Below are positions 7,757-19,811 of a DNA stretch of 33,966 nt, piece by piece. Source of the DNA: a virus (taxonomy: Duplodnaviria > Caudoviricetes). Location of the stretch: positions 1 to 33,966 of the IMG/VR virus record IMGVR_UViG_3300032225_000821, one strand, 5' to 3'. How positions within the stretch are numbered: position 1 is the first letter of the stretch; each line of letters begins with the position of its first letter. Position numbers and translations under genes: made by a program. The notes below the pieces were generated by a model that did no database searches, was not told the DNA's origin, and was given only the letters and a program-made list of their open reading frames with translations.

Positions 7757-7947
7757 TGCTCAGTCTCACCGCCGTCTGTACCGTCTGCCGCAAGCAGTAC
7801 GGAGTGTTCACCGGACCGATGTCGAGCCTCAAGACCAAGAGCCTCCTCGAGTCACTCGCCAACGTCGAGGACTTGCATCACGAGTGCCTCCGGCGTGACC
7901 ACAACCTCCGACTCCTCAACCCGCAGCACCCGGCTTTCGCCTCCTAG
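7756..7947 (+). CDS. Hypothetical CxxC protein
   Basis: GTG overlapping the TAG stop; CTVC...HHEC; ends at the strand convergence point. Confidence 0.5.
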   Translation: MLSLTAVCTVCRKQYGVFTGPMSSLKTKSLLESLANVEDLHHECLRRDHNLRLLNPQHPAFAS

Positions 7948-8342
7948 AGCTCAAACGTCATCTGGCCGGTGTCCAGGAGGGCGACGATCGCCCGGCTCCT
8001 CTGCTTCGACTCCGACGACATCGAGTCGAAGTGCTCGAAGCATGGGCACCGCCAGCGACCGGCGTGCGGCGTGCCAACGTACTGCTCGGGGAGCCAGCCG
8101 CTCCCGTCGCAGTACGGGCACGCCACCGGGCTCACGAACCTCATGCAGTCCTGGCGACAGATGTACGGGTACTCTTTCTCGCCGGCGCAGACGGGCCGAT
8201 GGTCGGAGCGTCGATGCCCGCAGCCTCGGCAGAGCGGCTCGCAGTCGTGCGTCTCGATCCAGCCGTCCCACGTCCGGCGGTGGACTCGCTGCGAGCACTT
8301 CGGGCAGTCGATCACCTCGTGCGTCGGGTCGAGCTTCGCCAT
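7944..8342 (-). CDS. Cys-rich multi zinc-finger protein
   Basis: CPKC, CRGCGH, CPYCDGSG motifs. Confidence 0.65.
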   Translation of the reverse strand: MAKLDPTHEVIDCPKCSQRVHRRTWDGWIETHDCEPLCRGCGHRRSDHRPVCAGEKEYPYICRQDCMRFVSPVACPYCDGSGWLPEQYVGTPHAGRWRCPCFEHFDSMSSESKQRSRAIVALLDTGQMTFEL

Positions 8343-8524
8343 CACGACGAGAACCCCGGACGCCAGCACTCCTCGCCCTTGCCCCATCGGTGGATGCCAC
8401 GATCGGCGCCGCTAGAGGACAGTTGGATCTCCGTCGGCCAGCCTTTCGCCTTCGACCAGGTGGACATGAATCCGCAGTTGCAGGCCTGCCGGTAGCGGAC
8501 CTCGGGGAACATCTCCTCCGTCAT
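8342..8524 (-). CDS. Hypothetical protein
   Basis: Stop/start overlaps on both sides. Confidence 0.5.
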   Translation of the reverse strand: MTEEMFPEVRYRQACNCGFMSTWSKAKGWPTEIQLSSSGADRGIHRWGKGEECWRPGFSS

Positions 8525-8706
8525 CCGGGCTTGCACGCGCTCAGCACCTCGAGCGTCGTCTCCAGCTCGTGCCGCAGCGCATCCACCTCGTCCCGGAACT
8601 TCATCATCAGTTTCAGATAGTGCGTCTTGGCTCGGTGATTGGCGATGGCGATGTCACGCCACTCCTCCGCCGTGAAGTGATCGACGGGCAAGTCCTCGAT
8701 GCTCAT
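8521..8706 (-). CDS. Hypothetical coiled-coil protein
   Basis: ATGA overlap; GGCGGTG RBS-like sequence. Confidence 0.6.
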   Translation of the reverse strand: MSIEDLPVDHFTAEEWRDIAIANHRAKTHYLKLMMKFRDEVDALRHELETTLEVLSACKPG

Positions 8707-8930
8707 GCCGACACCGCCTGCTCGAGGTCGTACGTCGGGCCGCAAAAGCAGGTGTCGCAGCGGATGCCGTACTGAGCGGTTCCACGATCAAACAGGTCCC
8801 GAGCGGTCGCCCTCGTCGGCGTCTCGCCCTCCAGGATGGCGACGTAGGTGCAGATCGGGCAGAGCAGGTCGACACCGACCCACGTCCAGCGGGTCGGGTC
8901 GGTGCTGGTGATGGTGACGGGCGTGTTCAT
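8703..8930 (-). CDS. Hypothetical Zn-ribbon protein
   Basis: CPIC...CDTC; ATGA overlap. Confidence 0.6.
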   Translation of the reverse strand: MNTPVTITSTDPTRWTWVGVDLLCPICTYVAILEGETPTRATARDLFDRGTAQYGIRCDTCFCGPTYDLEQAVSA

Positions 8931-9121
8931 GCCGACACCGCCTGCGACTCCAGGACGATCGCCGCAGCGATGGTCGGGTACTTGTCGAAGATCCAGCGGG
9001 CGCCGGCGTCCATCGCCTCCTCGAGCGTGCAGCCCGTCTCGGCCATGAGGGCGAACGTCTCCCGGGCCATGATCTTCATAAGCTGCGAGAGATCCTCGGT
9101 GCGCTCGGTGCTTGCTTCCAT
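8927..9121 (-). CDS. Hypothetical protein, first gene after the promoter at 9141-9184
   Basis: Strong RBS AGGAGGT; promoter immediately upstream. Confidence 0.7.
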   Translation of the reverse strand: MEASTERTEDLSQLMKIMARETFALMAETGCTLEEAMDAGARWIFDKYPTIAAAIVLESQAVSA

Positions 9122-9140
9122 GATTACCTCCTAGTAGGTA

Positions 9141-9184
9141 CTGACTCCACAAGGAACTGTAATACATGGCGCCGGAGATGTCTA
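9141..9184 (-). promoter_or_regulatory. Sigma70-type promoter with GGAGTCAG leader
   Basis: TAGACA-17 bp-TACAGT; 9141-9175 is 33/35 identical to 13140-13174. Confidence 0.75.
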
Positions 9185-9385
9185 GTCCATTCTTCGGACG
9201 ATCTCCCAATAGGTCATCCGGTTCCGATTCTCCGAGCATCGGTGCCCGACCTCGGAGGCGAGCGTCTCGAGCTCCTCGCCGCACTTCGGGCACCGCCAGA
9301 GCCGACGCCCCTGGCGCTTCGCCTGCTCGGTCCTCACGATGCGCCGGGCCTCGGCGTCGAGGTGGAAGTAGTCACCGAGGTCCAC
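9182..9385 (-). CDS. Hypothetical Zn-ribbon protein
   Basis: WRCPKCGEE...HRC. Confidence 0.6.
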   Translation of the reverse strand: MDLGDYFHLDAEARRIVRTEQAKRQGRRLWRCPKCGEELETLASEVGHRCSENRNRMTYWEIVRRMD

Positions 9386-9713
9386 CGGACTCCCGCACGT
9401 AGGTTGCCATCTGCTCCGGCGTGAGCACGCACCGCCACGCACCGCCTCGGAGGCGGACCATCGTGAAGGCGAACGTGACGCCGGCGTTGAGCCGTTGATC
9501 CTCGGCGCCCAACGGCTTCTCCCTCACGGCTCGGAGGGCATCGGCCCACGAGGCCACCTGGACGACCGTATCGGGCACGCCATCGAGGTCGCCGGTGTCG
9601 TCCTGCCGACCGGCCCCGAGCTTGCGCCGGACTCCGTAGCCGAGGAGGTCGTCGAGCAGCGCCGCCGCCTCTCGCTCCGCCCGGTCGCCCTTCGCCTTCT
9701 GCGAGTTCGTCAC
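9372..9713 (-). CDS. Holliday junction resolvase-like PD-(D/E)xK protein (Hjc type)
   Basis: KAKGDRAEREAA...DDTGDLDGVP motif; the ExK position reads QVA. Confidence 0.7.
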   Translation of the reverse strand: MTNSQKAKGDRAEREAAALLDDLLGYGVRRKLGAGRQDDTGDLDGVPDTVVQVASWADALRAVREKPLGAEDQRLNAGVTFAFTMVRLRGGAWRCVLTPEQMATYVRESGGPR

Positions 9714-9898
9714 TTCGCCCTCGCCGTGTCGTAGGCCTCCAGCCATTGCCGCCACATCTCCGGGAGCGGAGGCCACGGAGGAGTCGTGTCCGCCATCGCC
9801 ACGAGGAAGTCGTCGCCGCTCTGTCGCCACGCTCGCAGCACTCGCCAGCGGTTCCACTCGGCCTTCGCCATGCGATAGGCACAGATCGGGTATTTCAC
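9710..9898 (-). CDS. Hypothetical protein
   Basis: GTGA overlaps; GAAGGGG RBS. Confidence 0.55.
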   Translation of the reverse strand: MKYPICAYRMAKAEWNRWRVLRAWRQSGDDFLVAMADTTPPWPPLPEMWRQWLEAYDTARAK

Positions 9899-10011
9899 TT
9901 GGTCCCCTTCGGTTCGGCGTGAGTGTTCAGGCACTTCCAGAATCCGGTAGGGACGTGACGCCACTCCCGGCCCTTCTTGACGATCTCCTCGCCGCAGTTC
10001 TTACACTTCAT
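9895..10011 (-). CDS. Small Zn-finger protein
   Basis: MKCKNCGEEI...WRH...C. Confidence 0.55.
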   Translation of the reverse strand: MKCKNCGEEIVKKGREWRHVPTGFWKCLNTHAEPKGTK

Positions 10012-10340
10012 CGGTACGGGATTCTCCTCTTGATCCGAGCGACCTCGAGCGCGTCGACGTTGTCCTCCCACGACCACAGGACGTAGCCGGCGGCGTGTGC
10101 AGCCCTCGGGTGCTCAGTCGCCCAGGAATGGCACGAACGGCAGAGCGCCACGAACAGCTCGGGCCTCAGCGCCGCATCCTTCGCCTGCGATCGGCGGATG
10201 ATCTCGTGAACGTCGGAGGCCGGCTGGCCGCACCGCTCACAGTCGGGATGGATGGCGAGGAACTGGATGCGCAGCCACTTCCTCAGCCGGTCGGCCTGCG
10301 CCTTCTTGACCGACCGGCCTCGGAGCGGCGTGCGCTTCAT
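10008..10340 (-). CDS. HNH endonuclease
   Basis: MKRTPL N-terminus; CERC..DVHEIIRRS..ALCRSCH. Confidence 0.8.
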   Translation of the reverse strand: MKRTPLRGRSVKKAQADRLRKWLRIQFLAIHPDCERCGQPASDVHEIIRRSQAKDAALRPELFVALCRSCHSWATEHPRAAHAAGYVLWSWEDNVDALEVARIKRRIPYR

Positions 10341-10513
10341 GCCATCGACCGCCGGCGGGCGAGGCGGAGCCGCTCCCACTTCACCGAGCCGCCGTCGCCG
10401 TGGTCGCCCAAGTGCCCGGGCTCGAGCTGGCACCACAAATCATGCCAAGGGCTCCGAGCGTTGCAGGCTCGGTGCTTGACGCATGGCACGTCGACCTCGC
10501 AGGTACACCTCAT
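10337..10513 (-). CDS. Hypothetical Cys/His-rich protein (58 aa, not in ORF track)
   Basis: MRCTCEVDVPC...CQLEPGHLGDH; ATGA overlaps at both ends. Confidence 0.55.
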   Translation of the reverse strand: MRCTCEVDVPCVKHRACNARSPWHDLWCQLEPGHLGDHGDGGSVKWERLRLARRRSMA

Positions 10514-10677
10514 GCGTCGCCCTTCGCTCGCTCGGCGAGGAGCTCGTCACCACCGAGTACGGCGATCATCGCCCGCACGACCTCGGAGCGACTGACCCCA
10601 GCCTCCTCGGCCTTGCGATTGAGCCACGCCATCTCGTACTCGTCGAGGCGGGTCGTGAGGGGTGCAGTCTTAGCCAT
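10510..10677 (-). CDS. Ribbon-helix-helix (CopG-like) DNA-binding protein (55 aa, not in ORF track)
   Basis: MAKTAPLTTRLDEYEMAWLNRKAEEAGVSRSEVVRAMI: beta strand, helix, GxSRSExxR. Confidence 0.8.
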   Translation of the reverse strand: MAKTAPLTTRLDEYEMAWLNRKAEEAGVSRSEVVRAMIAVLGGDELLAERAKGDA

Positions 10678-11054
10678 TAGAACGGCTCCTCCGAGAACGT
10701 TGGCGCAGCCGCCGGGCGTGGCGTGCTTGTCTCCAGGCCGAACGTGAGGTCCAGCCCGACGTGATCGGCGACGACCTCAAGGCCCTCAACCTTCTCGCCC
10801 TGCTTGTTCGTCCAGTTCGCCGCCTTCAAGTCGCCGGCGACGACGAGGCGGGTGCCCTTGACGATGTGCTCCGAGCAGCCCTCGGCCAACTTGCCGAACA
10901 CGACGAGCCCGGCCCACGTCATCTCGGTCGACCACTCGCCGTCCGTCTTGACTCGGGACTCCAGCCCGATCCTCGTCTTGAACACGGCCTTGCCATCCGC
11001 CGAAAATCGGAGCTCTGGCTCCTTCACAACCTTGGCGATCCCTGCGATCCTCAC
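10677..11054 (-). CDS. ssb: Single-stranded DNA-binding protein
   Basis: PELRF, VVFGKLAE, KGTRLVVAGDL, C-terminal EEPF tip. Confidence 0.9.
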   Translation of the reverse strand: MRIAGIAKVVKEPELRFSADGKAVFKTRIGLESRVKTDGEWSTEMTWAGLVVFGKLAEGCSEHIVKGTRLVVAGDLKAANWTNKQGEKVEGLEVVADHVGLDLTFGLETSTPRPAAAPTFSEEPF

Positions 11055-11377
11055 TTACTCATCTCCTTCGCCCGCATCATGGCGAGCAGCTCACGGCCTG
11101 CGTCGGTGATGACGCACGCCTGGACAGTCTCGTCATGTGACGAGGTGGCGGTCCCGACGACCTCGGTGAGGCCCCAGGTCCTCAACTCCGAGCATCGGGC
11201 CCAATACATGCAGCCCGGACGGTAGAGGCCGGTCATCTTGGCGACCTCCTCGTCCGTCATGCCCTTCTTGCGCCGGCTGGCGGCGTACGTCTGGAGCAGC
11301 CGGTGCCGCTGGCTCCCCCATCGGAGGAGGTTCCGAGCCTTCTCATGGGCAAGCGCCGAGGTGTAGGTCGTCGTCAT
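11051..11377 (-). CDS. Winged-helix DNA-binding protein
   Basis: GMTDEEVA...WARCSELRTWGL...ITDAG. Confidence 0.7.
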   Translation of the reverse strand: MTTTYTSALAHEKARNLLRWGSQRHRLLQTYAASRRKKGMTDEEVAKMTGLYRPGCMYWARCSELRTWGLTEVVGTATSSHDETVQACVITDAGRELLAMMRAKEMSK

Positions 11378-11679
11378 GCGGCCCCCATCTCAGCCTCGGC
11401 CCGACCCTCAGCTCGAGCGATCCGGTCGGCCCGGTTCGTTGCCTGCGAGATCAGGAACGCCGTCGACCCCGCCATCGTCAGCGCCGAGGCGACATCGCCC
11501 TCGAAGCGGTCCCGGGCGATCTCCTCGTGCTTTGAGGCATAGCCCGTCCGGTGCGTCACGAGGTCGCTGAACATGACGGTGACCGTACTGACGTAGTAGT
11601 CACCGTCAAACGTGAGGTTGCCGGTGACGAGCCCGTCGCCGACCTCCTCCTCGACTGCCAGGATCAGTTCCTTAGCCAT
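11374..11679 (-). CDS. Hypothetical protein
   Basis: GGAAGGGG RBS; coupled to its neighbours. Confidence 0.65.
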   Translation of the reverse strand: MAKELILAVEEEVGDGLVTGNLTFDGDYYVSTVTVMFSDLVTHRTGYASKHEEIARDRFEGDVASALTMAGSTAFLISQATNRADRIARAEGRAEAEMGAA

Positions 11680-11818
11680 TGTTCTCCCCTTCCTTCTCGG
11701 CCTTCGCCGACTCCGACTGGCGACGTGCCAGCTTCTCCCGATACCTAGCCCTCTCGGCCAGGTAGCGATCCCTTCCTGCCTTCATTGCGTACTTCGATCC
11801 CGGTGTGCGCTTGCTCAT
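11672..11818 (-). CDS. Small basic hypothetical protein
   Basis: MSKRTPGSKYAMKAGR...; ATGA overlap. Confidence 0.5.
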   Translation of the reverse strand: MSKRTPGSKYAMKAGRDRYLAERARYREKLARRQSESAKAEKEGENNG

Positions 11819-12105
11819 CGCATACCCTTCCACTCTGGAGCCGGCTTCCAGCTCGACCTCGACGATCCCCTCGGGTAGCGCCACTCGTAGACCTTCGTCA
11901 TCCACTTTTTGTAGACGGACTCGCCGAGATTGAGGCAGACCCCGCCGAAGTGTGCGCCCTGCTGGAATCCCCTCCGGTACGACCGCTCGGCCAGCTCGTA
12001 GGCCTGCCGCTCCGTGACCATCACGTCGGGCGAACCAACGCTCTGCTCCTCGCAGAACGGACCGTCGAGCATCATGCCGGGCTCCTCCAGGTCCTCGCCG
12101 CTCAT
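11815..12105 (-). CDS. Hypothetical protein
   Basis: ATGA overlaps; ERSYRRGFQQG. Confidence 0.6.
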   Translation of the reverse strand: MSGEDLEEPGMMLDGPFCEEQSVGSPDVMVTERQAYELAERSYRRGFQQGAHFGGVCLNLGESVYKKWMTKVYEWRYPRGSSRSSWKPAPEWKGMR

Positions 12106-12644
12106 GCTGCGGCCTGGAGCGTTGCGATGATCTCGTCAACCTCGCTCGAGCGGATGTCACCGTAGCCTCGGACCTCCCGGCCCGTAGCGGCAGCGATGGC
12201 GTCCCGCAGGTCGTCACCTCGCAGCCCGACCTCGCCGGCGATCGCCTTGATGAGCTCCACCTGCTCCTCGGTGGCCTTGCCCGGGTCGACCTCGACTCGG
12301 ACCTCACGACCGGCGACGGCCTTGCTCATCTCCTCACGGCTCGGACGAGGTGCGCCCTTCGCCTGAAACGTCCAGTTAGCGAGGGCCCGACCGATGGCGC
12401 TCGTCTCGCAGTTCTCGAGGGCGCTCGTCTTGTTGACCGGACTGGAGCCGATCGTCTCCTCTGCGTAGCCGGTGGCAACCGGAGCCACGTCGTCGGCGCT
12501 CCGATAGACCTCGGCCTTCACGATGTACCGACCGCCCTCGGCGGCGACGAGCTCGGTGGCGATGCGCCCGTCAGGGTTCGCCTCCCAATACCTCACGAGC
12601 CGAGACTCGACAGTCTCGTAGTCGGCCAAGTTGAACCTTGCCAT
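12102..12644 (-). CDS. Single-strand annealing recombinase (Rad52/Sak-like)
   Basis: YETVESRL...ATGYAEE...NKTSALENCETSAIGRAL; RBS GGAAGGGG before the ATG at 12644. Confidence 0.7.
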   Translation of the reverse strand: MARFNLADYETVESRLVRYWEANPDGRIATELVAAEGGRYIVKAEVYRSADDVAPVATGYAEETIGSSPVNKTSALENCETSAIGRALANWTFQAKGAPRPSREEMSKAVAGREVRVEVDPGKATEEQVELIKAIAGEVGLRGDDLRDAIAAATGREVRGYGDIRSSEVDEIIATLQAAA

Positions 12645-12646
12645 GA

Positions 12647-12835
12647 TTAGATCCCCTTCCTGTAGTTGCGGATTGCCACGATAGCGGACCCGAAGAATCC
12701 GAACGTGAGAGTGATGAGCACGACGAGGCCGTAGGCGCTCATCGGCGTGTTGTCGGGTTGCCACGGCATGACCGTCACCACGGCGATGACGTAGCCGACG
12801 GCGATCCATCGGATGAGGGCGGTGCTGATCTTCAT
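12647..12835 (-). CDS. Small two-TM membrane protein
   Basis: Two hydrophobic helices. Confidence 0.65.
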   Translation of the reverse strand: MKISTALIRWIAVGYVIAVVTVMPWQPDNTPMSAYGLVVLITLTFGFFGSAIVAIRNYRKGI

Positions 12836-13116
12836 GCCGCCACCTCCTCACGGCTGGCGATGCTCGCCATCGTGACGCCGTTGCGGAGCGCCTGGTCGTA
12901 GGTCAACGTCGTCTCGTCGTCCATGACCCACGCCTCCATGTGAGCGTCCACGTCGTAGCGGCCCTCGATGATCTCTCGGATCATGGTGCGGACCGTCCAC
13001 TCGGGCGCCCCACGCTCAACGGTGGCGAGTGCGTCCAGCATCCCGAACAGCTCGCCGGTCGTGTTGGCCTCGAGCATTTGGATCATCTGCTCACGGATTG
13101 CGGTTGCGTTGCTCAT
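12832..13116 (-). CDS. Hypothetical protein, first gene after the promoter at 13140-13183
   Basis: AAGGAGG RBS; promoter immediately upstream. Confidence 0.7.
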   Translation of the reverse strand: MSNATAIREQMIQMLEANTTGELFGMLDALATVERGAPEWTVRTMIREIIEGRYDVDAHMEAWVMDDETTLTYDQALRNGVTMASIASREEVAA

Positions 13117-13139
13117 TGCGTGCCTCCTTAGGGCGGTTC

Positions 13140-13183
13140 CTGACTCCACTAGGAACTGTAATACATGACGCCGGCGACCGCAA
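13140..13183 (-). promoter_or_regulatory. Sigma70-type promoter with GGAGTCAG leader
   Basis: TTGCGG-17 bp-TACAGT; near-identical to 9141-9175. Confidence 0.75.
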
Positions 13184-13191
13184 GACCATTT

Positions 13192-13362
13192 CTAGTGATC
13201 GTCGATCCGGCCCTCGGTCGCCTGTTCCAACTGACGCTCCAGCTCCTCGAGCCGGGCGAGCAGAGTCCGCAGAGCGACGAGCGCATCCGAGGAGTAGTCA
13301 CCTCGCTCCACTCGTGCTCGGATCGTCTCCGTCCTCGGCGGGTGCATGTCGTAGTACGTCAC
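13192..13362 (-). CDS. Hypothetical coiled-coil protein
   Basis: GTGA overlap with whiB; GAGGAG RBS. Confidence 0.55.
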   Translation of the reverse strand: MTYYDMHPPRTETIRARVERGDYSSDALVALRTLLARLEELERQLEQATEGRIDDH

Positions 13363-13622
13363 AGCTCTCCTCTCATCATCTTCCCCTTCAGCCCGTTCCG
13401 CTCCCTCGGCGTCCGGCCTCCCCAATAGCCCTGGCGTACTCCGTTCATCACGGCGTACCGGAGGCAGTCGGCGGCGACCTCGCACCGGGCGCACGCCATC
13501 CGAGCCTCAGGCGTCACCGGCTGGCCCTTCTCATTGTGAAAGAGCTCAGGGTCCATTCCTCGGCACGCCGCCTCTAGCCGCCACGGATCTCGGACGGCGT
13601 CGAGGAACGCCTCGAGGCTCAT
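13359..13622 (-). CDS. whiB: WhiB family transcription factor
   Basis: W..AAC..DPELF..C..C.V...C..YA...GYWGG.T..ER; four Cys. Confidence 0.95.
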   Translation of the reverse strand: MSLEAFLDAVRDPWRLEAACRGMDPELFHNEKGQPVTPEARMACARCEVAADCLRYAVMNGVRQGYWGGRTPRERNGLKGKMMRGEL

Positions 13623-13918
13623 GCGTTGGCCTGCTCCACGATGCTCCGAGCCTCGGCGATTGCCGCCACCCTCGCATCCATCACCTCGGCGTACTGCTCG
13701 TTGGCGAAATCGAACGCCTCCGAGATCATCCCGAGCAGGTTGGCCCTCGCATCCTCCGCCGAGCAGTTGAACGCCTCAACGTTGCGGTGCGTGATCCGGC
13801 CCGAGGTCGTCAGCACCATCACGACGGCGATCCAGTCGGCAGTCACTCCAGGAGCGACGGTTCCGATGATCTTGCCGATCGGGTGCTCGTGCTCCTCACG
13901 GTGTGCGGTGTCCTTCAT
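13619..13918 (-). CDS. Hypothetical protein
   Basis: Coupled ORF within the operon. Confidence 0.6.
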   Translation of the reverse strand: MKDTAHREEHEHPIGKIIGTVAPGVTADWIAVVMVLTTSGRITHRNVEAFNCSAEDARANLLGMISEAFDFANEQYAEVMDARVAAIAEARSIVEQANA

Positions 13919-13989
13919 CAGTCATTCCTCGTCAGGTAGATGCCGGCGGCGGCGAACGCCCCGAGCATGGCGAACAGTAGAAACGTCAC
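13918..13989 (-). CDS. 23-aa single-TM peptide (not in ORF track)
   Basis: MTFLLFAMLGAFAAAGIYLTRND; GGAGGT RBS; overlaps both neighbours exactly. Confidence 0.55.
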   Translation of the reverse strand: MTFLLFAMLGAFAAAGIYLTRND

Positions 13990-14225
13990 GACCGCACCTC
14001 CGTCGTGCAGCCGTCGCAGTCGAGCGCCTTGCCGGTGCCCTCGATGACCATCCGCTGGTCGTGCTCGGTGATCTCCATCCACATCTCGTCGCCCACGTCA
14101 TACCCCGGGAGCGGCGGTCCGTGTTTGATCGCCATAAGCAGCTCGTCGCTGGCGTGACGCTCGCACGTAATCACGTCGTGTAGGTCGCACGCCCACAAGC
14201 GCCTTGTCTTGATCTGTTCGGCCAT
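13986..14225 (-). CDS. Hypothetical protein, first gene of the leftward arm
   Basis: GAGGAGG RBS; Cys pairs. Confidence 0.6.
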   Translation of the reverse strand: MAEQIKTRRLWACDLHDVITCERHASDELLMAIKHGPPLPGYDVGDEMWMEITEHDQRMVIEGTGKALDCDGCTTEVRS

Positions 14226-14302
14226 CTGGCCCTCCTCTCTTGTGACTCCTGCGTATCACGGTACACCACAAACGATCCACAGGCTAGGGATAAGGTGTGG
14301 AG
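14226..14302. promoter_or_regulatory. Divergent promoter region
   Basis: Leftward -10 TACCGT followed by GGAGTCAC leader; rightward -10 TAAGGT (14291-14296) 6 nt before ATG 14303 (leaderless geometry). Confidence 0.55.
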
Positions 14303-14497: not shown

Positions 14498-14533
14498 GAC
14501 GACCCCCGGCCACCACCAGGGCCGAGGGTCGTC
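14498..14533. terminator. GC-rich hairpin, possible terminator
   Basis: GACGACCC-CGGCC / GGCCG-GGGTCGTC stem; T-rich tail on the minus strand only. Confidence 0.45.
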
Positions 14534-14556
14534 TAGAGCCTGGAATGGAGGCCCTT

Positions 14557-14889
14557 ATGGCAAGAGACTACCCGACGACCTCGGCAGCAAGTCTGTACGA
14601 GGCCGGCGACGACACGATCGTCTACCCGACACACATCGACAACCTGACGAGCCGAACGCTCGTGTGGGAGAGTCGTGCGATCTTCCACCGAGCGGTCAAC
14701 GATCCCGAGCCGGACGAGTTCGGATGCGACTGCGGCTCGGGCTGGCAGCAGTTCTCCGTCTGCGGTCAGATGACGTGGGGATGCGACCACGGCGGCGGCT
14801 TGCAGTTCAGCCGAATCCGCCTCGGTGATCTAGACCTCGGTCGGCATCGACCATGCCTCAAGTGCTGGCCGGGGTTGAGGTTGCCATGA
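14557..14889 (+). CDS. Hypothetical Cys-rich protein
   Basis: GGAGG RBS; RPCLKC. Confidence 0.55.
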   Translation: MARDYPTTSAASLYEAGDDTIVYPTHIDNLTSRTLVWESRAIFHRAVNDPEPDEFGCDCGSGWQQFSVCGQMTWGCDHGGGLQFSRIRLGDLDLGRHRPCLKCWPGLRLP

Positions 14890-15641
14890 TCATCCGCACC
14901 CCAGGACGCGACCGCTACGTCATCATCAGCAAGGTCCCCCTCGAGGATGAGCGCCTGAGCTGGAAGGCTCGAGGCCTCCTCGCCTACCTTCTCAGCAAGC
15001 CCGACAACTGGAGCGTGATTGTCGCGCACCTCGTGAAGCAGGCGCCGGACGGTCGCTCGGCGGTCATGGCCGGCTTGCAGGAGTTGGAGACGGCGGGCTA
15101 CCTCGTCCGCAAACGGACCCGAGACGACGAGGGCCGATACGACGGCACCGACTCCGAGATCCATGAGGAGCCGAGTGATACATCCACAGTTCGGTTTTCC
15201 GACTGCGGGTTTTCCGACTGCGGGAAATCGGACACTAATGAAGAAAGACCATTAGTGAAGAAAGAGAAAGACTCTCTTGGCTCGAAAAATCGAGCGAGGG
15301 ATCAACTGTTCGACGCCCTCGTCCTCGTCTGCCAAATCGACCCCAAGGCACTCACGTCCTCGGCTCGTGGTGCAGCCAACCGAGCGATCAAGGAGCTCCG
15401 AGAGGTCGGAGCCGAGCCCGAGCAGATCGTCCAGGCGGCTCGGGCCTACCGGACCCGATACCCCGGAGCAGCGGTCACGCCCTCGGCGCTGGCAAAGCAT
15501 TGGCCGAGCCTCCTCGAGGGATCGCCGGCGACCGCTCCAGCTCAGCCCGAGGGCCCGACTTGCTCGGAGTGTCGAGGGACCGGCTACGTCACCGAGGACA
15601 ACGATGAGCGGATCGTCGCCCCCTGCTCGGCGTGTAGTTGA
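14886..15641 (+). CDS. Replication initiator (lambda O-like, N-terminal HTH)
   Basis: DERLSWKARGLLAYLLSKPDNW...LQELETAGYL; internal iterons; C-terminal CxxCxGxG. Confidence 0.8.
   Translation: MIIRTPGRDRYVIISKVPLEDERLSWKARGLLAYLLSKPDNWSVIVAHLVKQAPDGRSAVMAGLQELETAGYLVRKRTRDDEGRYDGTDSEIHEEPSDTSTVRFSDCGFSDCGKSDTNEERPLVKKEKDSLGSKNRARDQLFDALVLVCQIDPKALTSSARGAANRAIKELREVGAEPEQIVQAARAYRTRYPGAAVTPSALAKHWPSLLEGSPATAPAQPEGPTCSECRGTGYVTEDNDERIVAPCSACS
15193..15296. repeat. Probable replication origin: iterons plus A-rich tract
   Basis: Two exact tandem copies of GGTTTTCCGACTGCG (15193-15222), a degenerate third copy, then an A-rich stretch. Confidence 0.7.
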
Positions 15642-15702
15642 CGCCCCTCATCGCTTGCCCTAGTATCACAACCGGAGTCAGTACCAACGCCCCAAGGAGG
15701 CA
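15638..15702 (+). promoter_or_regulatory. Sigma70-type promoter with GGAGTCAG leader and RBS
   Basis: TTGACG-17 bp-TAGTAT; GGAGTCAG 15674-15681; AAGGAGG. Confidence 0.7.
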
Positions 15703-15706
15703 CACC

Positions 15707-16666
15707 ATGTACCAGGCACTCGCCTACCCCAACGCCATCGGAGACGAGGCGACACTCACCAAGGCCGCATGGCTAGACGTGAGGCACACCGGCATCGGAG
15801 GCTCCGACGCCGCCAGCATCCTCGGCGTCTCGCCGTGGAAGTCCCGCTACGCACTCTGGAGCGAGAAGTCCGCAGCGACCCCGCCGCCGCCGCTCACCGA
15901 GAACGACGCCATGAGGTTCGGGACCATGATGGAGCCCCACCTCCGGCGACTGTTCGCCGACGTGACCGGCCTCCAGGTCCTCGAGGACACGACGATCTAC
16001 CAGCACCCCGAGCACTCGTGGATGCTCGCCAACCTTGACGGCGTGGTCCTGGACGACTTCACCGGCGAGCCCGCCGCCGTCCTCGAGATCAAGACGGCCA
16101 GCCGCCCGCAGGGCTGGGCCAACGGCGTCCCGGCCTACTACCGGGCGCAGGTCGTCCACTACCTCGCCGTCACCAACCTCCCCAAGGCCTACGTCGGCGT
16201 CCTGCTCGCCGGCTCAGAGTTCAAGGTCTACGAGATCGACCGAGACGAGGCCGAGGTCGACGCCCTCATCGCAGCGGAGGCGGAGTTCTGGCGCAGCCTC
16301 GGCAAGGACGAGCCCGAGCTCGACGGCCACGACTCAACCCGACAGGCCCTCGCCGACGCCTTCACGCCCGACGGCTCCGAGATCGACCTGGACCCGAGCC
16401 TCTCGGATCTGTTCGAGAAGCGGGCCGGCCTCAAGCGAGACGCCGACGCCGTCGCCGAGGAGATCAAGGCGACAGAGGCAGCGATCATGCGGGCCCTCGG
16501 TGACGCCGAGATCGGACTCCTCGCCGGCAAGAAGATCGTGACGTGGAAGCCGCAGAGCCGGACGACGATCGACTCCAAGGCCCTCAAGGCCGAGATGCCC
16601 GAGGTCGCCGAGCGATTCAGCAAGACGAGCTCCAGCCGTGTCCTCCGCATCACTTGGGAGGCGTGA
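15707..16666 (+). CDS. YqaJ-like viral recombination exonuclease
   Basis: WL..R..GIGGSDAASILGVSPW, LANLDG, LEIKT, YYRAQV.HY. Confidence 0.92.
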   Translation: MYQALAYPNAIGDEATLTKAAWLDVRHTGIGGSDAASILGVSPWKSRYALWSEKSAATPPPPLTENDAMRFGTMMEPHLRRLFADVTGLQVLEDTTIYQHPEHSWMLANLDGVVLDDFTGEPAAVLEIKTASRPQGWANGVPAYYRAQVVHYLAVTNLPKAYVGVLLAGSEFKVYEIDRDEAEVDALIAAEAEFWRSLGKDEPELDGHDSTRQALADAFTPDGSEIDLDPSLSDLFEKRAGLKRDADAVAEEIKATEAAIMRALGDAEIGLLAGKKIVTWKPQSRTTIDSKALKAEMPEVAERFSKTSSSRVLRITWEA

Positions 16667-17555: not shown

Positions 17556-17722
17556 CGATACCCTCCGAAAACGGGGTGGAACGTAGCGACACCGTGACCA
17601 TCACGATCAGCCGTGAGGACGCCGAGTTGCTGGCGAATCCTCAGTACGTGGTCCCCATTGGCGACGATCCGTTGTCGAACGTCATCAGGGCAGCCCGAGC
17701 AGCACTAGAGGGGGAGCAATGA
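17552..17722 (+). CDS. Hypothetical protein (DTVTITISR module; not in ORF track)
   Basis: 56-aa coupled ORF; paralogous to the next gene. Confidence 0.6.
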   Translation: MTIPSENGVERSDTVTITISREDAELLANPQYVVPIGDDPLSNVIRAARAALEGEQ

Positions 17723-17937
17723 GCATCGGGAATATCTGTTGGTGCCGTGGATGCCAGACCGAGCAGCCGTGCATGGTGTACGGAGTGCCCGAGCAGCCCG
17801 ACACCGTGACCATCACGATCAGCCGCAACGAGGCGGAGTGGTGGGCAATGCACCGACCCATGCCTGAACAGTTCGGGAACTTCTTCGAGCGCCAGATCCA
17901 AGCGGCCTGTCGAGCAGCATTGAAGGAGCAGCGATGA
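17719..17937 (+). CDS. Hypothetical protein (DTVTITISR module)
   Basis: Shares a 27-bp exact repeat with the previous gene. Confidence 0.6.
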   Translation: MSIGNICWCRGCQTEQPCMVYGVPEQPDTVTITISRNEAEWWAMHRPMPEQFGNFFERQIQAACRAALKEQR

Positions 17938-18268: not shown

Positions 18269-18525
18269 CGCCCCACAACTACAACCGCCAGCCTCCGCAG
18301 CCCTGGAAGGCCTCCGACCTACGCTTGAAGGATGCCGAACGGAGCCGCATGAGCGGCGCCCCGATCGTACGCATCTCACCGGAGACGATCGCATTCTTGG
18401 ATCACCTGGTAGCGATGCAGCGCGTCGTCGACGCGGCCCGAGTGATCGCCGAGGATGGACTCCCATCCGACGCCCTCGTGGCCGCCCTCGCCAACCTCGA
18501 CGGCGCCGGAGGCGATGCTGCGTAG
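18265..18525 (+). CDS. Hypothetical protein
   Basis: ATGA overlap. Confidence 0.55.
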   Translation: MTPHNYNRQPPQPWKASDLRLKDAERSRMSGAPIVRISPETIAFLDHLVAMQRVVDAARVIAEDGLPSDALVAALANLDGAGGDAA

Positions 18526-18532
18526 CGGTACG

Positions 18533-19057
18533 GTGGCGAACCTAAGCCACCTCGCCGTCGCCATCATGGCGCAGCTCGTCGTCCTCGTCGGCGGAGTCCC
18601 GAGCGCCGCCGGCGATCCCAAGCCTCAAGTCGTACATCACGTACGACAAGTTGTACCGAACGTGCAGATCACGACGACGACGATGCCGCCGACGACGACC
18701 ACCGAGCCGCCGACGACCCTGCCACCGGAGACGACCACGACGACCGCTCCGCCGCCAGTAGCGCCAGCACCTCAGGCCGACCCGCTCGGGATCGCCGCCG
18801 CCTTCCAGGCCCTCGGCGCCTCGACCTCGGAGGCCGAGACGTTCGTGTGCATCGCATGGCACGAAAGCCGTTTCGATCCGAGCGCGGTGAACCCCAGCAG
18901 CGGAGCCGGCGGTGCTCTACAGTTCCTTCCGAGCACCTGGGCCAACCTTGGACGCCCGGGACTTCCCGAGGACGCGCCGTTATCGGATCAGATCGCCGCA
19001 GCATGGCAGCTCTACCGGAGCCAAGGCTGGAGTCCGTGGGCCGGTAGTTGCGTCTAG
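18533..19057 (+). CDS. Secreted lytic transglycosylase (SLT/Rpf-like)
   Basis: Signal-like N-terminus, Thr/Pro linker, CIAWHES, GAGGALQFLPSTW, QIAAA..LY..QGWSPW; start uncertain. Confidence 0.85.
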   Translation: MANLSHLAVAIMAQLVVLVGGVPSAAGDPKPQVVHHVRQVVPNVQITTTTMPPTTTTEPPTTLPPETTTTTAPPPVAPAPQADPLGIAAAFQALGASTSEAETFVCIAWHESRFDPSAVNPSSGAGGALQFLPSTWANLGRPGLPEDAPLSDQIAAAWQLYRSQGWSPWAGSCV

Positions 19058-19069
19058 TACCCTCGGCTC

Positions 19070-19261
19070 GTGGACGCCGAGATCATCAGCCTCAACGCCG
19101 AGCGCATGAAGCGACGGACCGGCAACGGCGGATTCTGCCGTCCATGCGTCGAGCAGGTCCGCCTCATGGGCAAGCTCGTCACCCTCGTCCCGGACGACTA
19201 CCCGAGACTCCTCGACGGATTCTGCGCCGAGCGAGACGACTGCGAGGCCGGACGCCGCTAA
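19070..19261 (+). CDS. Hypothetical protein
   Basis: TACCCT -10 lies 6 nt before the GTG; Cys pairs. Confidence 0.5.
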   Translation: MDAEIISLNAERMKRRTGNGGFCRPCVEQVRLMGKLVTLVPDDYPRLLDGFCAERDDCEAGRR

Positions 19262-19296
19262 CGGGAACGATCCGAGGTAGGCGATACGCTCGGGAC

Positions 19297-19400
19297 GTGG
19301 CCCTGGAGCGTTTGCCTCCTTGCTGACTCCAACTAGCAGGGCCACCGAGGCAGGCACCCGGCTCCAGCACCCCTTCCGCTGGAGTCCGGTGCCGCCTCTT
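19297..19400 (+). ncRNA. Candidate two-hairpin antisense small RNA
   Basis: -10 TACGCT 19285-19290; stem 19297-19305/19337-19345; long stem 19347-19368/19378-19398; loops complementary to early-gene leaders. Confidence 0.6.
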
Positions 19401-19412
19401 AGGATGGGGAAC

Positions 19413-19811
19413 ATGGCAGGACGACCGACCAAACTGACTCCAGAAATGCAGGCCAAGTTTGTAGCGCACGTCCGGGCCGGCAACTTCATCGAGACGGTCT
19501 GCGCAGCCTGCGGTATCGCGGTCTCCACCTACTACACATGGGCCGAGCGAGCCGAGAATGGCGAGGAGCCCTACGCCGGATTTATGGAGGCTGTACGCAC
19601 CGCCGAGGCCGAGGCCGAGCTGGAGGCCGTCGAGGGCATCCTGACGCACGCCGCCGAGAACTGGAGCGCCTTCTCGTGGTACCTGGAGCGCCGGCATTGG
19701 AAGCGGTGGCGCAAGACGGACAAGGTGGAGCAGGAAGTCACCGTGAAGAAGGAAGGGCCGGAGCCGAGTGAGCTCGACGACGAGATCCGCCGCATCCTCA
19801 ACCGAGACTGA
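19413..19811 (+). CDS. terS: Terminase small subunit
   Basis: MAGRPTKLTPE, HTH, NWSAFSWYLERR; TAGGAT -10 7 nt upstream; precedes terL. Confidence 0.85.
   Translation: MAGRPTKLTPEMQAKFVAHVRAGNFIETVCAACGIAVSTYYTWAERAENGEEPYAGFMEAVRTAEAEAELEAVEGILTHAAENWSAFSWYLERRHWKRWRKTDKVEQEVTVKKEGPEPSELDDEIRRILNRD

Follow-up and report, generated by a model that had tools for sequence, protein, structure and literature searches.

A candidate antisense RNA upstream of the terminase genes of a phage, with loops complementary to its early leaders

The CI RNA of phage P4 is an antisense RNA that blocks an RBS through complementary sequences held in its loops, and both c4 and CI RNAs are processed from a longer transcript. 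The c4 RNA of P1 and P7 targets the ant mRNA and serves immunity; in the relevant sections of a 2025 review (PMC12197685), the phage antisense RNAs OOP, aQ, sas and c4 are each described as acting on one phage mRNA. According to excerpts of two further reports, the 6C RNA of actinobacteria binds G-rich mRNA through C-rich loops without a chaperone (PMC6486639), and StxS, the lambdoid pR'-tR' short RNA, is bound by Hfq, arises from antitermination control and acts in lysogeny on stx1AB and rpoS (PMC7547250). In cluster K mycobacteriophages an RBS-linked motif, SAS, is common to the starts of non-structural genes. Passages of papers from 2011 (PMC3203893) to 2024 (PMC11373665) state its function to be unknown, and the former (Pope 2011) describes one reverse SAS in four K1 phages.

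Here we describe an element just 5' of the terminase small subunit gene (terS) in the window, by which we mean the whole stretch of DNA analysed, a virus record of 33,966 bases with a G+C content of 66%. The element resembles c4 (PMC12197685, in the sections mentioned) and P4 CI as a putative phage-encoded antisense RNA with complementary sequences in its loops, which are predicted to cover and block RBSs. Whereas c4 has one immunity target, the RNA predicted here would address two internal RBSs as well as four early operons, in a phage for which no integrase was found, and these targets are early replication and recombination operons rather than an antirepressor operon in a temperate immunity region. 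With StxS the element would share the nature of a short regulatory RNA with an origin at the start of the late operon and an action in trans, but it is predicted to target early leaders of its own phage, and a separate promoter seemingly serves terS. Of the two hairpins, loop 2 is C-rich, as in 6C, both in the window and in the distant relative G001, and loop 1 is C-rich in G001 and branched in the window; 6C is chromosomal and loop 1 here is a phage-specific complement. The first-pass annotation had not recognised the RNA family, and Rfam lists none above threshold for the whole window (E<=1) or the element (E<=10); the c4 and CI covariance models matched at neither setting, and the 6C model did not match the element at E<=10. 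By analogy, the element appears to join a c4-like working, a StxS-like place and a 6C-like loop while being a member of none of these groups. We regard it as an RNA that is new in sequence and of a recurring but unproven kind.

The window encodes two WhiB-like proteins, YqaJ, SSB, RusA, HNH, and head and tail proteins, and this content, the two WhiB-like genes included, points to an actinobacterial type of host. Its terS is also encoded in a contig of 37,949 bases, so the window, which is 2-4 kb shorter than related contigs, possibly lacks a few kb, most likely in the tail region. The early genes are divergent, leftward from ~14250 and rightward from ~14850, and terS starts at 19413. Among the 51 ORFs scanned in this shortened window no match to an integrase or an antirepressor was found, nor was a CI-like gene recognised; two bacterial-genome scans returned no prophage relative. 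The element had been proposed as an early-to-late or immunity switch. The early-to-late role fits its position at the head of the late genes, while the immunity role is unlikely because no integrase was found. The accompanying remark that no CI-like repressor is evident stands as far as CI-like genes go, but the phage does encode a DNA-binding protein of the ribbon-helix-helix (RHH) type. The late-proximal features are as follows.

19070..19261, plus strand: small Cys-rich gene directly 5' of the RNA element, the synteny anchor (38% identity to the G001 homologue)
19285..19290, plus strand: TACGCT, -10 box of the predicted RNA (identical hexamer at the identical place in G001)
19297..19345, plus strand: domain 1, an outer stem around two predicted sub-hairpins (fold prediction; no listed change in strains X3, X4 and X5)
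19313..19322, plus strand: anti-RBS segment TGCCTCCTTG, masked in part through pairing to 19305-19309; its complement AAGGAGGCA stands at 13121-13129(-) and 15694-15702(+)
19323..19333, plus strand: anti-box segment, which includes CTGACTCCA at 19323-19331 (sequence match to the leader box; fold)
19347..19398, plus strand: domain 2, a bulged 20-bp hairpin with an open 9-nt loop ACCCCUUCC at 19369-19377 (-39.3 kcal/mol, z -7.2)
19400..19405, plus strand: TAGGAT, a second -10-like box 7 nt before the terS ATG
19413..19811, plus strand: terS, the first late gene (phrog_4102, E 1.8e-30)

The element lies just 5' of terS, and the TACGCT box before a 9-bp stem is present as first described, with stem arms at 19297-19305 and 19337-19345. 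The 31-nt loop within this stem exists as sequence but is not predicted to be open: domain 1 folds into a three-way junction in which the outer stem has 8 bp and two sub-hairpins leave the anti-SD half-masked. Opening the anti-RBS segment is predicted to cost 3.3 kcal/mol, and 5.3 kcal/mol together with the anti-box. The predicted seed is the exposed loop ACUCCAAC at 19326-19333, whose UCCAA opens at a cost of 0.04 kcal/mol. As for the extent of the element, the first hairpin was confirmed, and the second, stronger one was added; its stem is bulged and contains a G-U pair. No U-tract terminator was called at the element, and in the model domain 2 is the probable 3' end of the RNA. Positions 19366-19415 are identical in L001.

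Two -10 boxes, its own and the one just before terS, bound the element at about 19297-19399, so that it probably forms a stand-alone transcript of ~100 nt. The motif TANNNT occurs in the window genome at a frequency of 0.001 per position; strain X4 has TACGAT as the upstream box and retains TA...T. The promoter is probably activator-dependent, since no clear -35 accompanies the box at 19285. TANNNT lies 5-8 nt upstream of 3 of the 49 called starts, with ~0.2 expected, and TAGGAT is probably a leaderless terS promoter; L003 has TAGACT 6 nt before its own terS, and G001 has only AAAGAT. The small Cys-rich gene also has TACCCT (window 19058-19072) 6 nt before its GTG and is therefore probably leaderless. 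It matched no protein family, and its database relatives number only two, plus the G001 homologue.

The position of the element would also suit a cis-acting 5' leader of the late operon, either an attenuator or a structure concealing the terS RBS until loop 1 is occupied by early mRNAs. In longer transcripts, near-equal folds do pair the 5' part with the terS start, and in G001 blocking loop 1 cuts the opening cost of the terS start by 1.8-3.7 kcal/mol. The identical test in the window yields only 0-0.5 kcal/mol, which leaves a reciprocal cis switch unsupported there, and right behind hairpin 2 there is a -10-like box for terS itself. A passage on the mycobacteriophage Adephagia (PMC11373665), in which late transcription apparently starts in the gap that holds the anti-SAS hairpin, would agree with a leader; on balance we consider a cis-acting role quite unlikely.

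Strain contigs from three studies (runs X3, X4 and X5) cover the element. The 16 listed differences, at 15 positions, all fall within 19240-19293 and none within 19294-19412; the list includes all 8 for X3, and 3 in X4 and 2 in X5 near piece ends are not on it. With 15 variable positions in the 94 bases 19200-19293 and none in 19294-19412, Fisher's test gives p 2.4e-6, for strains that have some changes in common and are not mutually independent. The X3 contig that covers the element has 59 differences over its 2,184 bases, none of them within the RNA. No compensatory base-pair changes were found in X3, X4 and X5. The element is real and under selection. Directly behind it, in the 5' part of terS (19413-19600), divergence sets in after 19438 in X4, X5 and L001, and the terS start of one X5 contig is of the L003 type; these sharp differences among strains suggest allele swapping right behind the RNA.

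The complementarity of TGCCTCCTTG and CTGACTCCA to the RBS and box of the leaders at 15674(+), 13147(-), 9148(-) and 14249(-) was confirmed, with the box at 7/8 in the case of 14249. The leaders, with net predicted binding to the RNA, are these.

15638..15709, plus strand: target leader 1, promoter TTGACG-17-TAGTAT, box 15674-15681, RBS 15694-15702, YqaJ recombinase ATG 15707 (-17.8 kcal/mol)
13114..13183, minus strand: target leader 2, promoter, box 13140-13147, RBS 13121-13129, ATG 13116 (-21.8)
9119..9184, minus strand: target leader 3, promoter TAGACA-17-TACAGT, box 9141-9148, RBS 9127-9133, ATG 9121 (-21.1)
14223..14286, minus strand: target leader 4, weaker, -10 TACCGT, box 14243-14249 (7/8), RBS 14231-14237, ATG 14225 (-14.0)

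All four leaders follow -35/-10 pairs, and each GGAGTCAG box lies just 3' of the pair, at the probable 5' end of the mRNA. They do not count as four separate cases, however: leaders 9148 and 13147 have in common a duplicated promoter of 51 nt (84% identical) and are thus not independent. At three other starts the net predicted binding is -6.2 to -11.6 kcal/mol. The 23-nt core of loop 1 pairs with the four leaders at a mean duplex energy of -29.05 kcal/mol, a value reached by none of 5000 shuffled loops and by none of 5000 in which the anti-SD core was kept fixed. Three leaders rank within the top 4 of 8,439 genome windows for pairing with loop 1, and a single non-leader window, on the minus strand close to the tape-measure start, ties with them; the leader at 14249 does not make the top 15. 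The complementarity of loop 1 to the four early leaders is more than chance.

Two further box copies were rejected as leaders or targets. A putative fifth minus-strand promoter-leader at 19331 has no -10 upstream and no start codon after the RBS, and a copy inside terS (19434) is at chance level and lost in X4, X5 and L001. A leader-pattern scan found 0 stretches. The region of the 13147 leader is kept in X2 and X3 contigs, and the gene behind it is deleted in X2 and replaced in X3.

The second loop has candidate targets of its own inside the early operons.

12653..12660, minus strand: candidate loop-2 target, RBS GGAAGGGG of gene 12102-12644 (8-mer match)
11686..11693, minus strand: candidate loop-2 target, RBS GGAAGGGG of gene 11374-11679, with a 7/8 box copy 21 nt upstream (8-mer match)

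The 8-mer complementary to loop 2 occurs at three places in the window, namely the RNA itself and these two RBSs, and the RBSs of 12644(-) and 11679(-) have the two best loop-2 scores among 50 called starts. The sequence GGAAGGGG, found at 2 RBSs in the window, is absent from G001, and GGAGGAGG, found at 3 early RBSs in G001, is at no called RBS in the window. From these sequences loop 2 appears to track the RBS type of its own phage.

A two-hairpin outline is likewise known from the chromosomal Streptomyces RNA Scr3202 (Rfam RF02833), to which the element has a sub-threshold full-length match of 23.3 bits against a gathering score of 52 (E 0.11), with no match listed for G001. The element could accordingly be a real sRNA, or a 3'-end fragment of the early right operon, whose main targets are host mRNAs or generic SD sequences in the manner of 6C or Scr3202, the leader match being secondary. 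The two hairpins with a C-rich terminal loop, and the canonical anti-SD that forms loop 2 of G001, would suit such a role. It seems quite improbable to us, as the phage-specific box match survives controls in which the anti-SD is fixed and the anti-SD of loop 1 is predicted to be masked.

G001, whose terL and terS are 79% and 64% identical to those of the window, has the same order of features: the small Cys-rich gene comes first, then TACGCT, a hairpin, a long hairpin whose 9-nt loop is C-rich, and terS. Its second hairpin has 23 bp, another stem sequence and the loop ACCUCCUCC. The stems and loop 1 are wholly different from those of the window, and four G001 early leaders lack the GGAGTCAG box. 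We scored each RNA against each set of leaders by the sum of the two longest perfect blocks per leader. The window RNA scores 65 on window leaders and the G001 RNA 56 on G001 leaders, and the crosses score 45 and 48; this is one comparison of two phages, with the G001 RNA located by synteny. Gene calling was crude, above all in G001 (17 calls), so the G001 leaders were chosen by promoter pattern and by eye. The cognate score is reached by 0 of 3,312 background windows in the window and 1 of 1,455 (a tie) in G001, and by 0 of 2,000 and 5 of 2,000 shuffles, respectively, with the anti-SD core fixed. The YqaJ leaders are orthologous, and each is matched by the RNA of its own phage, over 18 bases in the window and 16 in G001. 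For pairing in G001 a stem arm must open, since it contains half of the match; the four G001 leaders have no common box, and loop 2 of G001 is a generic anti-SD. The sequence GACGTGG alone is a weak candidate for a G001 tag, with 22 occurrences. Strain invariance, the shuffle and background controls and the cognate match of G001 together support the proposed bipartite pairing in trans with box and RBS.

Beyond G001 no further homologue of the RNA element was found. In G006, G007 and G008, which are more distant, and in L003 a coding gene and not an RNA precedes terS. Scans with a terS profile gave only L001 and G001 above 50% identity, and YqaJ and upstream-gene scans found no viral loci. A viral-contig pattern scan for the loop-1 pair returned 75 stretches, which we treated as unrelated, as at most a single tblastn match to a window protein was seen, in 2 of them. 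The pattern of G001 hairpin 2 returned 6 stretches, the sole relative being G001 itself, and a motif survey across all compared loci found copies in G001 only.

The same comparison bears on whether GGAGTCAG is a DNA operator. A candidate protein is encoded in the early block.

10510..10677, minus strand: RHH protein, candidate for an operator-binding role (Pfam RHH_1 25.3 bits, cut-off 20.5)

This protein, or a WhiB-like one, would repress early promoters by overlapping +1; the copies near the late promoters would be sites for an activator or a repressor, and hairpin 2 would be either a palindromic site or a terminator. In favour, every one of the four promoters has the box at its start site, the inverted repeat of hairpin 2 has its centre ~40 bp 5' of the terS start, and the ESAS repeats of cluster K are thought to be protein sites in passages of two papers (PMC3203893, PMC11373665). 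An operator leaves unexplained the adjacent anti-RBS, loop 2 and the bulged 20-bp stem with its G-U pair. G001 apparently has a similar small gene, yet no common box, and its palindrome, centred ~48 bp before terS, has different arms; the terS-internal box copy is lost in strains. We consider an operator unlikely.

Loop 1 matches the reverse complement of the 13147 leader at 13 of 14 bases, and the complementarity extends into CTAG 5' of the probable +1, as it would in an inverted copy at the DNA level. That the element is a non-functional relic, such an inverted copy beside an ordinary terminator, is nevertheless highly improbable, given its invariance in three strains and the cognate match that G001 has of its own; the extra matching bases are also accounted for by a sub-hairpin.

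We favour, as reasonably likely, an antisense RNA that acts in trans to stop translation of the early mRNAs when the early phase gives way to the late one. Its transcription would start at an activator-dependent promoter of late type, or run in from the early right operon by read-through, and would end at hairpin 2; the late timing is suggested by a -10 without a -35 adjoining late genes. Each early mRNA would first be caught by its 5'-terminal GGAGU, through the exposed ACUCCAAC loop of the RNA. Unzipping of both short sub-hairpins would follow, so that the masked anti-SD captures the RBS with the variable spacer looped out, and the outcome would be repression. Masking of the anti-SD would keep the RNA off ordinary host RBSs, while loop 2 would reach the two internal early RBSs that loop 1 fits poorly. 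Read-through transcripts could provide delayed feedback through identical pairing.

A similar layout is seen in cluster K. In Adephagia the single reverse SAS copy (58682-58694) is predicted to lie in an open hairpin loop in the gap between genes 92 and 93, where, in the section of PMC11373665 that deals with this gap, late transcription apparently starts. Both systems place a single reverse copy in a hairpin loop where the late genes begin, a likeness of layout with no homology. The SAS is one 13-mer over the RBS, whereas here a 5' box and an RBS are set apart by a variable spacer; there is no sequence relation, and the 13-bp SAS consensus before start codons was not found in the window leaders. 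In total 197 phage records match the gene 92-93 region, and among seven selected phages the anti-SAS stem has double-sided changes at 4 of 16 pairs. In the 14 cluster K phages examined, the anti-SAS loop is exact in 5, partial in 2 and absent in 7. Covariation of SAS and loop failed as a test, because the three phages checked that have an imperfect or missing late-leader loop, namely Amgine, Shandong1 and Hurricane, still have an unchanged SAS. In the Microbacterium phage Chivey (cluster EF; motifs from passages of PMC7302621 and PMC12859693, accession from PMC10112241) no reverse motif copy was found within 2 mismatches. The SAS kept without a matching loop, together with Chivey, indicates that common leader motifs need not be read by an RNA. 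By analogy, the layout seems to recur in cluster K, yet such motifs can persist without a reverse-copy loop.

The gene 92-93 gap of the cluster K phages (Adephagia JF704105.1, 58541-58880, L363:28540-28880; also L364-L376) contains a conserved multi-hairpin RNA behind a TAGACT box. One hairpin loop in the gap is lineage-variable, and three records annotate small ORFs across it.

More broadly, one late-made multi-loop RNA could be a protein-free master off-switch for early translation in a lytic actinophage, with a private 5' address tag on every early transcript that unlocks the anti-SD; RNA and tags would be re-coded together between lineages, and cluster K1, with its reverse SAS hairpin, would provide an independent instance of this logic. 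We put this forward tentatively, as possible if a little short of probable. If true, silencing a whole temporal class via a common leader tag would be a distinct form of lytic-cycle timing, and a tag-reading RNA would be a candidate for what reads the start-associated sequences. Actinobacteria could also gain a compact, chaperone-free silencing tool in a tag-gated anti-SD RNA. In the open-licence literature we found no description of an entire early class being repressed by one phage sRNA via a common leader; subscription papers could hold a precedent.

Several minor observations concern the early regions. The early block (window 7944-14250) is on the minus strand here, and its G001 homologues run rightward (L004 1-4000); mis-assembly was dropped as an explanation, as one X3 contig spans the block collinearly. 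Between the divergent early regions a strong G+C hairpin (14498-14533) has a T-rich tail on the minus strand and looks terminator-like, and 14853-15641 encodes an HTH protein resembling a replication initiator. In strain X3, 476 other bases replace 14539-15305, and X2-X4 are without cover at 14765-15215. The early right operon ends (18455-19057) with an Rpf-like transglycosylase domain behind a Thr/Pro-rich linker. Near-identical stretches that end in GCAGGCGGTGTCGGCATG lie upstream of consecutive small genes (8703-8706 and 8927-8930, minus strand), as at a tandem duplicate gene junction. A 48-nt segment (DTVTITISR) is repeated in adjacent small genes at 17587-17634 and 17799-17846, and is also present in G001 (L004 7865-8130).
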